A stretch of 64,000 bases of DNA, taken from Alphaproteobacteria bacterium (GTDB taxonomy: Bacteria; Pseudomonadota; Alphaproteobacteria; GCA-2731375). Both the position numbers and the translations under genes were made by a program. Under the pieces are notes generated by a model. That model made no database searches and was not told where the DNA came from. It was given only the letters and a program-made list of their open reading frames with translations. The stretch spans positions 1-64,000 of the forward strand of contig CBDDBZ010000028.1 of the NCBI GenBank assembly GCA_965225945.1, read 5' to 3'. Position 1 is the stretch's first letter; every line of letters starts with the position of its first letter. This document shows positions 1-5,710 of the stretch, in pieces.

Positions 1-147
1 CCATCCAGCGGTTCTGCCTCCGAACAATCGAAACCGCTGAACAGCAGGCGAAAATCATGCGAACTTCGGAATCGGGACACTAGGTAGCACGATCGTTACA
101 ATTCTTGTTGGCGCCCCACATCGAATCATTGTATATCGGCGCCCTTC

Positions 148-606
148 ATGCACACTATATCATTCCGACAGTTCATCGAATTTCTAAACGGCCGGGGGCC
201 ACGCTTTATATGTGTCGGCATCCTGCCGAATGAACTCGTGACACATCTGGGAACCAAGGCTGCGGAAATTCATCTGCAATACGATTACGCACGCAAACTT
301 TGGGAACGGCACAACTTGACCCCTCAGCACTACTACGCAATTGGCCGCTCATTAGAGCACGGGGAATGCAGGGCCGACAAAGGCGATTTGGTCTTCTTCT
401 ACGATGATAGCGCGCTTCTACGGACTCGGTTCAAACTGGTGATCAAGACAACAGTATTGAGAAACGAAACGTGGGTGAAAACATTTCATCGCCTAAATGC
501 CTTTGAGTTCAAGAGGCAGTCCGCCAAGTGTGAACTCATACGCCCAGCCCCTAAAAGCCCTTCTGACGGAGCCATGAGGCTTGGCCCCGCCAGAAGAATC
601 GACTAG
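148..606 (+). CDS. Stand-alone PBECR2-like (Barnase-EndoU-ColicinE5/D-RelE superfamily) putative ribonuclease
   Basis: 152-aa low-GC ORF. The pattern VGILPNELVTHLG...KLWERH.LT...Y...LEHGE...LVFF...FKLVIKTT...ETWVKTFHRL resembles the PBECR2 domain usually fused to phage MuF proteins. Recognised by eye, no HMM run. Confidence 0.6.
   Translation: MHTISFRQFIEFLNGRGPRFICVGILPNELVTHLGTKAAEIHLQYDYARKLWERHNLTPQHYYAIGRSLEHGECRADKGDLVFFYDDSALLRTRFKLVIKTTVLRNETWVKTFHRLNAFEFKRQSAKCELIRPAPKSPSDGAMRLGPARRID
553..598 (-). terminator. Putative intrinsic terminator of the candidate sRNA
   Basis: 15-bp stem 560-574/582-596, fully paired only on the minus strand (two G-U pairs), followed by UUUU (556-553). 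Confidence 0.5.
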
Positions 607-703
607 TCACGACCGAGGGACTCCTAGGGCTCCCTCTACTGCACCTGCCACATGAAGCCTCAAGCGGCAGAGCGACGGCCAGGAGATTCACCGAGTCTGT
701 CGC
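553..703 (-). ncRNA. Candidate structured small RNA, convergent with and overlapping the 3' end of the nuclease gene
   Basis: Closing stem 610-613/699-702 and three hairpins (615-620/631-636, 644-651/664-671, 676-679/690-693). Loops 621-626 and 680-685 are complementary. A/C appositions on + become G-U pairs on -. Bounded by a promoter (710-738) and a terminator (553-598). Confidence 0.55.
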
Positions 704-709
704 CCCACA

Positions 710-738
710 AGATTAGACGATTCGTCGCGCAGAATCAA
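710..738 (-). promoter_or_regulatory. Sigma70-like promoter for the candidate sRNA
   Basis: Minus strand TTGATT (738-733), 17-nt spacer, TAATCT (715-710). Predicted start near 703, exactly at the edge of the structured element. Confidence 0.6.
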
Positions 739-932
739 TAGGTTAGGAAAAAGTGACTGATCGATGAATAGTCGAGTCGCTTCAATGGTTTAGCCTGATA
801 TTTCCCGGTACCCCTTCCATTGTCGGCTCACCGGATGCCCAGCAACGGCGACGCGCCAGCGCGACTAGGCAGGGGCGGCGTAACAAATCGTCCGGCGTAG
901 GCGAAGCCCGGCGCGAGCGGGCACCCGCGCGC

Positions 933-1874
933 TCAGACCAGCCCGGGAATCGGCGTCGCGTGCCAGCCGTCGGTCTTCTTGGCCCAGTAGAGCTCGCCGA
1001 TCCGGGTGGTCACCGGCCCCGGCGCGCCGTTCGAGAGGATGGTGTCGTCGATTCTGGTCACCGCCATCACGCCGCCGGCGGTGGAGGAGATGAAGACCTC
1101 GTCCGCCGCCCGCAGCTCGTCGGGCGAGATCACCCGGGCCTCGGCGGCGAGACCGAGCTCGCCCGCCAGCTCCAGCACCGACCGCCGGGTGATCCCCTCC
1201 AGCATGCCGAGCTCCGGTGTGGCCACCCTCTCGCCCAGGACGGAGAAGACGTTGAAGCCCGGCCCCTCGGTGATGTTGCCGGCCATGTCGAGCACCAGGC
1301 AGGTATCGGCGCCACCATCCAACGCCTCCATCAGCGCCCGGGTCAGATCGCCCCGGTGGAAGGTCTTGATCCGGGGATCGAGCGATTCCGGCGGGATCCG
1401 CGCGATGTCGCTGATCGCCACGTGGAGGCCGCGGGCGCCCTCCGGCAGGTTCTTGTCGATCGTGTCCAAGGGCCGGCTGAAGGCCCAGAAGCGGTTCTTG
1501 TTCTGGCTCGGGTCGCGCGGCGCCGCCGGCGAGGTCTGGCCCCGGGTGCAGACGACCTGCACCATCTGCTCGGCCCGCCCGTCGAGCCGGGCCAGCGTCA
1601 CCATGATCTCGCGGATCGCCGCGTCGTCATGTCCCGGATCGAGCTTCAGCGCCTCGCAGGACTGGCGAAAGCGGCGAATGTGGTCGTCCAGCCGGAAGGC
1701 CATGCCGCGCCAGACGTGCGCCGTGTCGAAGCAGGCGTCCGAGCGCAGGAAGCCGAAATCCATGATCGGCACCGCGAGCTCCGCCAGCGGCCGGTATTCG
1801 CCGTCGGTGTAGCCGGCGCCGCCGGCGAAATCCTCGGCCGACCGGCCGAGCTCCAGATCCTCCACCAAGGCCAT
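933..1874 (-). CDS. Class IV aminotransferase (BCAT/D-amino-acid aminotransferase family)
   Basis: Motifs DFGFLRSDACFD, FRLDDHIRRF, EGPGFNVF, LEGITR, ADEVFISSTAGG. RBS precedes the ATG at 1874. Confidence 0.9.
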   Translation of the reverse strand: MALVEDLELGRSAEDFAGGAGYTDGEYRPLAELAVPIMDFGFLRSDACFDTAHVWRGMAFRLDDHIRRFRQSCEALKLDPGHDDAAIREIMVTLARLDGRAEQMVQVVCTRGQTSPAAPRDPSQNKNRFWAFSRPLDTIDKNLPEGARGLHVAISDIARIPPESLDPRIKTFHRGDLTRALMEALDGGADTCLVLDMAGNITEGPGFNVFSVLGERVATPELGMLEGITRRSVLELAGELGLAAEARVISPDELRAADEVFISSTAGGVMAVTRIDDTILSNGAPGPVTTRIGELYWAKKTDGWHATPIPGLV

Positions 1875-1947
1875 CGCATCTCTCCCTCGATTGCTCTGCC
1901 AGGGCGCCATGCTAACCGAGATTCCTCGCGGGCGCGAGGCCGGCGCT

Positions 1948-2586
1948 TCAGGCCAGCGTGGTCTTGGCCTCCCAGCGGCAGAGCTCGGCGACGACGCAGG
2001 CCGGGCAATCGGGCTTGCGCGCCTTGCAGACGTAGCGTCCGTGTAGGATCAGCCAGTGATGGGCGTGCTGCTTGAAGCCTGCCGGCACCACCTCGTCTAG
2101 CTTGCTCTCCACGGCGAACGGGGTCTTGGCGGGCGCCAGGCCGGTGCGGTTGGCGACCCGGAAGACATGGGTGTCGACGGCGATGGTCGGCTCGCCGAAG
2201 GCGTTGTTGAGGACCACGCTGGCGGTCTTGCGGCCGACCCCCGGCAAGCTCTCGAGCTCATCCCGCGTGCTCGGCACCTCGCCGCCGTGCGCCTCGATCA
2301 GGATCCGGCTCAAAGCGATGACGTTCCGGGCCTTGGTGTTGTAGAGGCCGATGGTGCGGATGTAGTCGCGCAGGCCGTCCTCGCCCAGCGCGACCATCTG
2401 CTCCGGCGTCCAGACCACCTCGAAGAGCGGTCCCGTCGCCTTGTTGACGCCGACGTCCGTCGCCTGCGCCGAGAGCACCACGGCGACCAGCAGGGTATAG
2501 GGGTTCTTGAAATCGAGCTCGCTGCGGGGCGCGGGATACTTGGCCGCGAGCCGCGTGAAGAAGCTTTCGACAGCGGCCTTGCGCAT
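1948..2586 (-). CDS. nth: Endonuclease III
   Basis: LLVAVVLSAQATD, HhH motif LPGVGRKTA, AVDTHVFR, and the Fe-S motif C-X6-C-X2-C-X5-C. Confidence 0.95.
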   Translation of the reverse strand: MRKAAVESFFTRLAAKYPAPRSELDFKNPYTLLVAVVLSAQATDVGVNKATGPLFEVVWTPEQMVALGEDGLRDYIRTIGLYNTKARNVIALSRILIEAHGGEVPSTRDELESLPGVGRKTASVVLNNAFGEPTIAVDTHVFRVANRTGLAPAKTPFAVESKLDEVVPAGFKQHAHHWLILHGRYVCKARKPDCPACVVAELCRWEAKTTLA

Positions 2587-2600
2587 CGTCGAGCCGGCCT

Positions 2601-4396
2601 CTAGCGGCGGCCGAACAGCCGCTCGATGTCGGCGAGCTTCAGTTCGATATAGGTCGGGCGGCCGTGGTTGCACTGGCCGGCGTTGGGGGTCCGCTCCATG
2701 TCGCGCAGCAGGGCGTTCATCTCCTCGACACTCAACTGCCGCCCGGCCCTGACCGAGGCGTGACACGCCATGGTCGCTACGACATCGTCGAGGCGCTCCT
2801 TCAGTTCCAGCGCGGCGCCGATTTCCGCCAACTCGTCGGCGAGGTCCCTGACCAGGCCCCGGACCTCGGTCCGCCCCAGCGCCGCCGGCACCTCGCGCAC
2901 CACCACCGCGCCCTCGCCGAAGGCTTCCAGCACCAGGCCCAGTTCGGCCAGCTCGCCGGCCCGGGCAGCCAGCCGGTCGACCGCCGCCGGGTCCAGTTCC
3001 ACCACCTCCGGCAGCAGCAGCATCTGGCGGGCGACGCCGCGGGCGCCGAGTTCGGCCTTCAGCTTTTCCATGACGATGCGCTCGTGCGCCGCGTGCTGGT
3101 CGACGATCACCACCCCGTCCCGGGTCTGGGCGATCACATAGGTCGCATGCAGCTGGGCCCGCGCCGCGCCCAGGGGATGGTCTTGCTCGGCCACGGCCAC
3201 GGCCTCGAGGGGAGCTGCCGAGGGTGCCGCCGTGCCGGCGAGCCGCCAAGCCTCGCCCGACGGCGGCGCCTGGTAGGCGGCCGCCGTCTCGGCCAGGCCG
3301 CTCGCCACTCGCCCGCCATGGCGGGCCGTGTTCCAGGGCAGCGAGGCGCTCGCGCGGACCGCGGCAAGCGCCGCCTCCGAGACCGTGCTCGCCGAGCGAT
3401 GGCCCGCCGCGGCCAGCGCGTGGCGGAGGGCGGAGACGATGAGCCCGCGGACCTCGCCCGCCTCGCGGAACCGCACCTCCGCCTTGGCCGGGTGCACGTT
3501 CACGTCGACCTCGCCGGCCGGCAGATCGAGATAGAGCACGACGGCGGCATGCCGGTCGCGCGCCAGCACGTCGCTATAGGCGCCCCGGATGGCGCCCCCC
3601 AGCAGGCGGTCGCGCACGGCACGGCCGTTGACGAAGAGATATTGTTGCAGCGTGTTCGCCCGGTTGTATGTCGGCAGGGCGACGTAACCGGAGAGCCGGA
3701 GCGCGCCCCGCTCGGCCCGAATCGGAATGGCGTTGTCGGCAAAGCCCCGGCCCAGCACACCGGCGATCCGCTCCAGCCGCCGCGCCTCGCCTTCGCCCGG
3801 CGCCGGCGGCAGCTTGACCAGCGAGCGGGCGCCGTCACCCAGCGCGAAGCCGACGTCGGGCCGCGCGAGCGCCAGTCGGCGCACCGTGTCGGTCGCGTGG
3901 TTGAACTCGGTGCGGGCGGTCTTGAGGAACTTGAGGCGGGCCGGAATGGCGCGAAACAGCTCGCGCACCTCGATTCGGGTGCCGGCGGAATGCGCCGCCG
4001 GGCGGCCCGGCCGCAAGGTGCCGTGCTCGACCTCCAGGCGCCAAGCGTGCGCGTCCTCTCGGCGCCGGCTGGTGATGGCGAGGCGGCTCACGCCTGCGAT
4101 CGCGGGCAGCGCCTCGCCCCGGAAGCCGAGCCAGCGGATGTCCAGCAGGTCGTCGTCGGGAAGCTTAGAGGTGGCATGGCGCTCGAGCGCCAGCGCCATC
4201 TCGTCGGGTCCCATGCCATCGCCGTCGTCGTCGACTTGGATCAGCTCCCGGCCGCCGTCGACCAGCAGGGCCTCGACATGGCGCGCGCCGGCGTCGAGCG
4301 CGTTCTCCACCAGTTCCTTCAAGGCGCTGGCCGGACGCTCGATCACCTCGCCGGCGGCGATCCGGTTGATGGTAGCCTCGGGGAGCCGCCGGATGC

Positions 4397-4400
<4 letters not shown>
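2601..4400 (-). CDS. mutL: DNA mismatch repair endonuclease MutL
   Basis: [39 protein letters not shown]. Confidence 0.97.

Positions 4401-5710
<1,310 letters not shown>

Follow-up and report, generated by a model that had tools for sequence, protein, structure and literature searches.

A covarying small RNA family usually encoded tail-to-tail with PBECR/MuF-C RNase-domain genes, and its very probable diverged member in an alphaproteobacterial islet

Introduction

ToxI, the RNA of the type III toxin-antitoxin (TA) system ToxIN, is an array of short repeats that lies upstream of the toxin gene on the same strand and is cut by the toxin. As far as the consulted part of PMC3475682 describes ToxI/ToxIN, the RNA described here is comparable in that its gene neighbours that of an endoribonuclease, it has a pseudoknot, it is linked to phages, and protein-RNA neutralisation is its proposed mode of action. 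Unlike ToxI, it is single and convergent with its partner gene, with a promoter of its own, and the toxin fold is BECR rather than ToxN-like. By analogy, the closest parallel to how the RNA would work is an RNA antitoxin that counters an RNase toxin, without the features that define type III.

Two further RNAs share part of the architecture. The phi29 pRNA is built on a three-way junction, and its loops pair between molecules. The present RNA is alike in being a phage head-module RNA with two complementary, covarying loops, and differs in being found outside phages as well. Its likeness to tRNA lies in a four-way junction with a terminal stem, first and last hairpin loops that are paired like the D and T loops, and a core of ~95 nt; in contrast to tRNA, the loop contact consists of 5 Watson-Crick pairs of free sequence, and neither the length nor the sequence of the middle hairpin is constant. 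The RNA copies inspected show no CCA end.

The gene arrangement also has precedents. In the convergent type I TA systems RatA/txpA and SR4/bsrG, the genes are likewise tail-to-tail with a common terminator region, and at the locus analysed here the RNA overlaps the 3' end of the putative toxin gene; unlike here, the type I toxins are small hydrophobic peptides and their RNAs need no conserved tertiary fold. CreTA, as portrayed in the excerpted text of PMC8501985, resembles the present family in having a small structured RNA gene that abuts CRISPR repeats. The differences are that only ~2% of the present copies are so placed, that no crRNA-like guide partner was identified, and that no array lies near the locus analysed. 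The protein partner fits the description of PBECR/MuF-C domains in the sections of PMC5512222 consulted, an account that in those sections mentions neither a partner RNA nor an immunity factor.

We analysed a 64,000-nucleotide stretch of an Alphaproteobacteria genome (contig CBDDBZ010000028.1 of assembly GCA_965225945.1; hereafter the window), near the start of which a sequence-only reading had proposed a cloverleaf RNA with a kissing-loop pseudoknot.

Results

A predicted RNase gene in a low-GC islet

The contig starts within an insertion sequence, with bases 1-83 forming its right end; the genome contains 27 other full or partial copies, and the transposase, with DDE_3 and HTH domains, indicates an IS630-like element. 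To the right lie core genes, the first of which encodes a class IV aminotransferase. The islet between the insertion sequence end and the core genes contains a single ORF, and its GC content is ~50% over bases 84 to ~830, compared to 66% genome-wide. The islet DNA (84-930) has no DNA match among 32 genomes of the same family.

148-606, plus strand: solo PBECR/MuF-C-type (BECR-fold) predicted RNase of 152 aa (ORF, relatives and fold matches)

A full HMMER scan recovered 99 representative relatives at E ≤ 1e-3, 20 of them at ≤ 1e-10. The relatives are mostly ~135 aa long and match query residues ~5-134; the family-conserved part of the ORF corresponds to nt 160-549, while the final 18-19 codons extend it through the terminator hairpin of the RNA (see below). 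In an alignment of 69 sequences, K50, H55, G72, F83 and K100 are invariant or nearly so and a TFHR motif is found, with H55 present in at least 90% of the sequences; the window protein reads KTFHR at 111-115. This residue layout agrees with the active-site description of PBECR (MuF-C) domains in the consulted sections of Iyer et al. 2017 (PMC5512222), and the same layout of Lys-His plus a terminal-strand His is given for colicin-like BECR RNases in the accessible portion of a 2026 preprint. Relatives often form the C-terminal domain of ~400-aa proteins, with an N-terminal Phage_Mu_F domain detected by Pfam in all four tested.

The AF2 model of the window protein displays a confident alpha/beta fold (pLDDT 93.6). 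Foldseek returned nothing at E ≤ 1e-3, with RelE/HigB toxins among the top rows at E ≥ 0.05. In a VIA-align comparison to 48,161 chains, the top rows are almost all BECR/RelE-type toxins with moderate Z values of 6.5-3.8, below the level that the tool treats as distinctive: CdiA-CT 5i4q (6.5), BrnT (6.5), colicin D (5.0) and colicin E5 (4.5), as well as other CDI toxins and RelE. Pfam assigns no family to the window protein, and its PBECR models match just one of the 69 relatives (PBECR3, E 0.011). A word-based protein search found the window's own protein alone, PHROGs and PADLOC gave no match to it, and a PDB sequence profile search gave myoglobin only (E 1.6). The ORF at 148-606 is a real gene, and both its sequence relatives and the structural model point to a solo PBECR/MuF-C-type domain for which RNase activity is predicted.

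The RNA element and its single-sequence folding

Directly downstream of this ORF lies the proposed RNA, the core of which comprises the following features, with helices numbered as in the family described below.

609-703, minus strand: structured RNA core with a four-way junction (sequence, covariance-model matches at 610-702, family covariation)
699-703 with 609-613, minus strand: helix P1
690-693 with 676-679, minus strand: helix P4
665-671 with 644-650, minus strand: helix P3
631-636 with 615-620, minus strand: helix P2
681-685 with 621-625, plus a 680/626 G-U pair, minus strand: loop-loop pseudoknot

The sequence-only reading had described a closing stem (CGAC 610-613 with GTCG 699-702) around three hairpin stems (GAGGGA 615-620 with TCCCTC 631-636, CTGCC 645-649 with GGCAG 666-670 and CGG 676-678 with CCG 691-693), complementary outer loops (CTCCT 621-625 and AGGAG 681-685) and five A/C appositions on the plus strand (609/703, 644/671, 650/665, 679/690 and 626/680). 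All of these are present in the sequence, the five appositions included. Compared to shuffled controls, the single sequence folds no better than chance on either strand: the MFE z-score is -0.87 on the plus strand (35/200 shuffles fold equally well) and -0.18 on the minus strand (79/200). The nested part of the proposed structure evaluates to -19.9 kcal/mol on the plus strand and -25.0 on the minus strand with G-U pairs counted, compared to MFE values of -34.4 and -39.2, placing the family fold ~14 kcal/mol above the nested MFE on both strands. These insignificant thermodynamics are not evidence against an RNA, since a pseudoknot is beyond what nested folding can represent.

Searches against described RNA classes were negative. 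Rfam gave 0 matches at gathering thresholds in the 64-kb window and, at E ≤ 10 in bases 1-1000, one chance row (E 3.6) and no tRNA match; with the gathering and E ≤ 10 settings applied to the window and 12 homologous loci, only chance rows appeared (mir-3158, Giardia snoRNA). A match to a known Rfam family of unrelated function, which the sequence-only reading had named as a refuting outcome, was thus not obtained. ARAGORN found 0 tRNAs in bases 1-5000, and tRNA, tmRNA and YrlA were rejected on the ARAGORN result and the Rfam result for the window and the 12 loci. A phi29-type pRNA was likewise rejected for want of an Rfam match in the window or these loci. A type III antitoxin RNA was rejected given the lack of an Rfam match and of tandem direct repeats beside the toxin gene (TRF, 0 rows in bases 1-1200), and a type I TA system because the partner, at 152 aa and with an alpha/beta fold predicted confidently, is not a small hydrophobic peptide.

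A conserved, covarying RNA family

The DNA downstream of 12 homologous RNase genes contains a common motif with the same architecture as the window element. Read in the plus sense, it consists of a P1 strand, P2 (GGGG..CCCC) with a loop starting CCUNNN, a variable P3, then CUACGG, a loop and CACCGUGUCAC, and the second P1 strand. The sequences of the P2 and P4 loops vary in concert between the 12 loci. An exact-pattern scan for the P4 core yielded at least 119 stretches in one-genome-per-species contigs and at least 120 in viral contigs.

For the genome set, 66 of the 120 matches listed passed a filter that required a P1 of at least 6 and a 5-mer loop complement, and removal of two by eye (L029 and L135) left an alignment of 64 copies (A2). 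This filter biases P1 and the pseudoknot, and the viral set is therefore the clean test. A covariance model without the pseudoknot (R1), built from homologues with the window excluded, confirmed 75 of 80 viral loci, which gave 72 distinct rows (alignment A3). The pseudoknot was part of neither the search pattern nor R1, whereas P4 is invariant by construction, its sequence having been fixed by the search pattern. A second model (R2) was built from 72 more varied matches.

In the 72 viral rows, 94.2% of the cells assigned to helices are paired, compared to 73.2% after shuffling and 33-51% when partners are slid; the corresponding values for the 64 genome copies are 94.6% and 76.3% shuffled. Compensatory changes were found in 8/9 pairs of P1, 3-4/6 pairs of P2 (3/6 in the viral set), 6/7 pairs of P3 and 4-5/5 pairs of the pseudoknot (4/5 in the viral set). 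The pseudoknot forms five of five Watson-Crick pairs in 70 of the 72 distinct viral copies and does so with 17 different words; permuting the partners gives full pairing in a mean of 15.4 and a maximum of 24 copies. The junction nucleotides are strongly conserved. The covariation among homologues on which the earlier proposal hinged is thus present in P1, P2, P3 and the pseudoknot. The family consensus is a P1 of 4-9 bp that encloses P2, P3 and P4, with the P2 and P4 loops joined by a 5-bp Watson-Crick kissing pseudoknot, and it is this consensus that the closing stem, three hairpins and loop-loop contact of the window element reproduce.

The family is one of structured small RNAs, mainly of Mu-like phages and prophages. 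When one RNA copy was compared by blastn to 50,697 phage records, none matched. With filters off, R1 placed a hit of 15.6 bits (E 0.057) in Ochrobactrum phage POA1180, directly following the head-morphogenesis gene, and found no credible copy in phages B23, Rhodovulum P1 and Mu. The last result bears on a packaging-type RNA, which would oligomerise hand in hand like phi29 pRNA, with the MuF-C domain binding it inside the prohead. Such a role would suit the location in the portal-MuF head module, intermolecular pairing would equally produce covarying loop-loop words, and the consulted sections of PMC5512222 suggest that the inactive MuF-C domain of Mu may bind RNA. We nevertheless consider packaging very improbable: Mu itself shows no credible copy, no Rfam pRNA match was obtained, and one copy stands in an isolated chromosomal islet while others adjoin CRISPR arrays where head genes are lacking.

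Neither Rfam 15 nor the literature searched, motif-catalogue supplements aside, lists the RNA. The main text of PMC5737381 (224 motifs) contains no Mu or head-gene motif, while its supplement could hold a related motif under another name, and no description of the RNA was found in the consulted parts of PMC5576092 and of the 2026 BECR preprint. With no published description found, this is a previously unlisted RNA family.

The window copy is a diverged member

R1 has a single match in the 64-kb window; it is full length, covers 610-702 and scores 21.1 bits (E 0.0093, or 0.015 in a 106-kb search set). It is also the sole match at E ≤ 1 in the 6.27-Mb genome (E 0.92). The only match of R2 in the window falls on the same copy, with 25.2 bits (E 0.002), and both alignments coincide end to end with the four helices of the sequence-only reading. 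The score of 21-25 bits compares to 41-96 for other members and the copy is diverged, with a P1 of 4-5 bp where 7-9 is usual and a P4 of 3-4 bp. In the plus sense, the P4 and junction region reads CUACGG...CACCGUGUCAC in the family and CGACGG...CACCGAGUC in the window, with most letters kept and two P4 pairs broken. At the aligned positions, the window has the pseudoknot word CUCCU/AGGAG where the consensus has CUCCC/GGGAG, two substitutions that compensate each other. The element lies ~3-4 nt after the stop codon of the RNase gene (604-606), with the RNA core ending at 609-610 in a convergent arrangement.

We therefore regard 609-703, with great confidence, as a diverged but intact member that has the family fold; the element is real despite the single-sequence result because the comparative evidence of models and homologues supports it. 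That same result, a fold no better than shuffles, is what favours reading the stems as chance features just 3' of an orphan gene. Chance is nonetheless an extremely remote explanation for a full-length, syntenic match that is the only one in window and genome and has a compensated pseudoknot.

The RNA is very probably encoded opposite the RNase gene

A -35/-10 match at 8 or more of 12 positions was found on the minus strand of 37/64 copies of the genome set (plus strand 9/64, shuffled 14/64) and of 39/69 in the viral set (plus strand 4/69, shuffled 10/69). The promoter signal was thereby replicated in two independent sets. Within the 70 nt upstream on the minus strand, the family -10 element ends 11-18 nt from the core anchor, and TTG and TA peaks stand at fixed distances. 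At the other end, at least 5 U within 10 nt past P1 occur on the minus strand of 12/69 viral copies and on the plus strand of 1/69. A separate hairpin with U-run is frequent in copies that lack the U-tract (L012, L015, L052, L100 and L108), and in the solo relatives L012 and L015 it occupies the same place as the terminator hairpin of the window.

Base pairing is similarly asymmetric. RNAalifold gives -33.8 on the minus and -26.9 on the plus strand. A count over the variable helices of A3 yields 73 A/C cells, which become G-U on the minus strand, compared to 20 G-U cells on the plus strand. The apposition that matches 626/680 is A/C at the same alignment position in 25/64 and 21/72 copies. At the junction column pair 64/102, C-G in 46 copies is replaced by A/C in 13, a change that is legal on the minus strand only, and in two L121 copies a P4 A-U has turned into A/C, giving G-U on the minus strand. 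Against the minus strand, a P4 U-G pair forms on the plus strand only, in all copies, though it was fixed by the search pattern. The family promoter signal, the U-tract or terminator and the excess of G-U pairs together back the strand originally called from the window alone, and we consider it highly likely that the RNA is encoded on the minus strand, opposite the RNase gene.

The window itself has the corresponding signals:

733-738, minus strand: -35-like hexamer TTGATT, read from the sequence, with a 17-nt spacer to the -10 and the family TTG peak at a matching distance
710-715, minus strand: -10-like hexamer TAATCT, read from the sequence, 7 nt before P1; predicted start ~G703-G705
558-598, minus strand: terminator-like hairpin of 17 uninterrupted pairs, including two G-U pairs (A/C mismatches on the plus strand)
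553-556, minus strand: U-run (CUUUUAG), one base after the hairpin; likely 3' end

The promoter is a weak match (7 of 12) and is absent from the output of a stricter promoter scan. The hairpin at 558-598 reaches -28.1 kcal/mol on the minus strand (z -4.56, with 0/200 shuffles as good) compared to -20.0 on the plus strand; the U-run went unlisted by a terminator scan because it has only 4 U. The window RNA is likely ~150 nt long, as predicted from ~704 to ~553, overlapping the last 54 nt of the ORF.

These strand data also weigh on a plus-strand mRNA element, that is, a 3' stabiliser, processing site or intercistronic regulator within the late-operon or RNase mRNA. We find this improbable given that promoter and U-tract signals lie on the opposite strand, that A/C cells outnumber plus-strand G-U cells 73 to 20 in the variable helices, and that RNAalifold performs worse on the plus strand; moreover, no upstream plus-side gene is present in L277 or in copies where the next gene is encoded on the same strand as the RNA. 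In favour of a plus-strand element, phage late operons certainly produce plus-strand transcripts, Watson-Crick pairs form on either strand, the P4 U-G pair is specific to the plus strand, and metatranscriptome contigs, which are strandless, span the region. In four metatranscriptome runs of one study, such contigs extend from beyond 1100 down to 475, 476, 522 and 630. Being strandless and without defined ends, and with DNA carry-over possible, they indicate presence in RNA libraries and not a transcript.

Association with the RNase gene

Twenty protein-anchored loci were taken from three genome samples, 19 of which could be assessed. A strong RNA match lies directly downstream of the gene in 10/19, with constant relative orientation, a weak match is found at the expected place in 4/19 and no RNA match in 5/19. 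The four weak ones (L013, L016, L017 and L276) score 12-16 bits with R1 and were not recovered by R2 at E ≤ 1. L013 and L016, candidate members inspected by eye, show the same architecture with other sequences.

Anchoring on the RNA instead, a gene of the RNase family ends within 260 nt of 46/75 viral copies, and 3 further copies have the gene overlapping or 356 nt away; it is absent from the fetched flanks of the remaining 26/75, 5 of which have less than 450 nt of flank. Two of three model-only copies from the class sample (151 genomes) similarly have no family gene within their 3.1-kb loci. The neighbours of orphan copies are varied (HNH, DUF6378 and unrelated genes), and clustering the neighbours of 22 RNA copies without the RNase gene revealed no common partner. 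The pair is maintained both with a solo RNase domain (window, L012, L015) and with one fused to Phage_Mu_F. Usually, the RNA gene and a gene whose product terminates in a PBECR/MuF-C RNase domain are arranged tail-to-tail, and the association is strong but not obligatory. An inspection by eye of intact catalytic residues against RNA presence in downstream-printed homologues showed no clear pattern.

The same layout could be read as type-I-like cis-antisense regulation, in which the minus-strand RNA pairs with the RNase/MuF mRNA, at its 3' end or in its intercistronic part, where the two are fully complementary. Pairing would either trigger cleavage or block the RNase or the next late gene, and the structure would serve just fast loop-loop recognition and stability. 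The genes are indeed convergent, with the RNA 3' end abutting or overlapping the stop codon and 31-92 nt from stop to core; the terminator hairpin of the window falls within the last 54 nt of the ORF, and the RNA promoter is independent of the late operon. Antisense pairing, however, needs no intramolecular loop complementarity, yet this pairing covaries in 70/72 copies; it also sits poorly with the strong conservation of the junction nucleotides, with about a third of the copies not being beside the gene, and with a toxin that is a 152-aa soluble RNase rather than the small membrane peptide of type I systems. We judge both the antisense pairing and the effects ascribed to it unlikely.

The orphan copies, in turn, lend themselves to a free-standing tRNA-like decoy or counter-defence RNA that soaks up tRNases of host or rival, or other RNA-binding defence proteins, with the place next to MuF being merely a convenient slot in the head module. 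The RNA occurs without the RNase gene beside HNH, DUF6378 and unknown genes; it has its own constitutive-type promoter and a tRNA-like topology; and it can be present in tandem, each copy with its own pseudoknot word (four copies in L121, two in L028). A decoy would not account for adjacency to one protein domain in fused, solo and non-phage islet (window) contexts, and ARAGORN and the Rfam tRNA models are blind to the RNA, making this reading in our view somewhat less likely still than antisense regulation.

Discussion

The explanation that we prefer is that the RNA is an antidote to the RNase encoded opposite. In the window, the minus strand is likely transcribed from its own sigma-70-type promoter (-35 at 733-738, -10 at 710-715), with transcription starting at the foot of P1 and ending at the hairpin 598-558 and its U-run. 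The folded, tRNA-like RNA may then bind the RNase domain as a pseudo-substrate and keep it harmless, which would make the RNA an antidote or immunity factor and the two genes a stand-alone, toxin/antidote-like islet of ~750 bp. That the RNA mimics an RNase substrate, as the sequence-only reading had suggested, is something we infer; the idea gains weight because the neighbouring gene encodes an RNase domain of the BECR fold, with tRNases among its closest solved structures. No hint of the other option in that reading, a ribozyme-like fold, surfaced. The antidote proposal fits these tRNase matches, the TA-like look of the two-gene islet and the sigma-70-type promoter, which leads one to expect expression in lysogens. 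Orphan RNA copies would behave as orphan immunity genes, again in line with the proposal. Taken as a whole, from family, fold and minus-strand RNA to the putative antidote role, this explanation is offered tentatively, as plausible though short of probable.

If the RNA neutralises the RNase, RNA-antitoxin logic would also cover another toxin fold and effectors delivered by virions. The Mu F protein carries a MuF-C/PBECR domain whose role has been open since 2017, and the RNA is a concrete candidate partner for it. The family is widespread, with strong covariation that includes the pseudoknot, and for annotation this means that what lies between F and the protease/I genes in many Mu-like phages is not empty space.

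A further, doubtful extension of the antidote proposal is that Mu-like phages inject a head-borne MuF-C/PBECR RNase, that the constitutive tRNA-like RNA made by the lysogen is the immunity factor, and that bacteria have captured orphan guards, some of them at the ends of CRISPR arrays. The placement at CRISPR ends would, on this extension, hint that the injected RNase attacks crRNA or tRNA; if true, this would be the first case of a virion-delivered toxin domain with RNA as its immunity factor. Adjacency to CRISPR arrays would also make the proposed link of PBECR domains to CRISPR RNA testable. RNA copies abut CRISPR repeats at 4-5 loci (~2% of copies), and in L095 the copy is located between the last CRISPR repeat and a degenerate repeat.

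Covariation and tandem gene copies

Columns 63 and 103 of A2, the alignment of 64 genome-set copies of the RNA, form a conserved junction G-C pair that extends P3, the variable middle hairpin. This pair is replaced by A-U in the homologous loci L274 and L271, whose RNA copies are protein-anchored and do not derive from the pattern-ascertained sets. The replacement is an additional compensatory change.

The RNA gene also occurs in tandem, with four copies in one locus and two in another (coordinates here and below are those within each locus, unless given for the window). The pseudoknot words, i.e. the 5-nt P2-loop sequences pairing with the P4 loop, differ between tandem copies, and each is compensated internally. 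A separate promoter-like site accompanies each of the two L028 copies.

Pseudoknot words of the tandem RNA genes
L121, 5114-5738: CUUGC, GUCCC, CUGCC, CUUCC
L028, 3333-3560: CUCCC, CUCGC

Placement beside CRISPR arrays

CRISPR-associated placement was found for 5 of the 246 loci with the core (the conserved P4 pattern used to collect loci), among the matches listed. By a rough, non-formal estimate, this is far above random expectation.

RNA loci with CRISPR arrays
L036, ~3604-3706
L095, 271-447
L125, ~915-1025
L277, 1380-1597
L137, 1-1310

At four loci the RNA gene directly adjoins the trailer end of the array; three of these arrays are type I-E-like, while the other has 36-nt repeats and 30-nt spacers. 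In L095 the RNA and its promoter are flanked by the final repeat on one side and by a degenerate repeat on the other. L137 carries an array, then a truncated MuF-PBECR gene and the RNA.

Named phages

In two named phages, an unannotated gap separates the protease/I gene from the F/head-morphogenesis gene.

Unannotated gaps in named phages
Ochrobactrum phage POA1180 (L266), 3165-3472, 309 nt
Alteromonadaceae phage B23 (L267), 3240-3512, 274 nt

A shorter variant of the RNA element is located directly after the stop codon in the POA1180 gap (15.6 bits, E 0.057), with a -10-like box, CATATT, seen on the opposite strand.

Surroundings of the RNase ORF in the window

1-83, IS630-like element with a DDE_3 transposase (right end)
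74-102, promoter-like site, GGGACA-17-TACAAT
148-606 (+), predicted RNase ORF

The contig begins inside the IS630-like element, of which the genome holds 27 further copies. As the promoter-like site spans the IS end and is directed at the RNase ORF, the IS may drive transcription of this ORF.

At its other end (550-606), the RNase ORF runs 18-19 codons beyond the usual family end, crossing the RNA terminator hairpin; the gene likewise reaches into or over the RNA gene in L017, L186 and L204. At intergenic position 885, a single base present in the window is missing from the contigs of three of the four metatranscriptome runs, owing either to strain variation or to misassembly. The 45 nt at 809-853 are 84% identical to positions 8289-8333 of contig C4 from the same genome.
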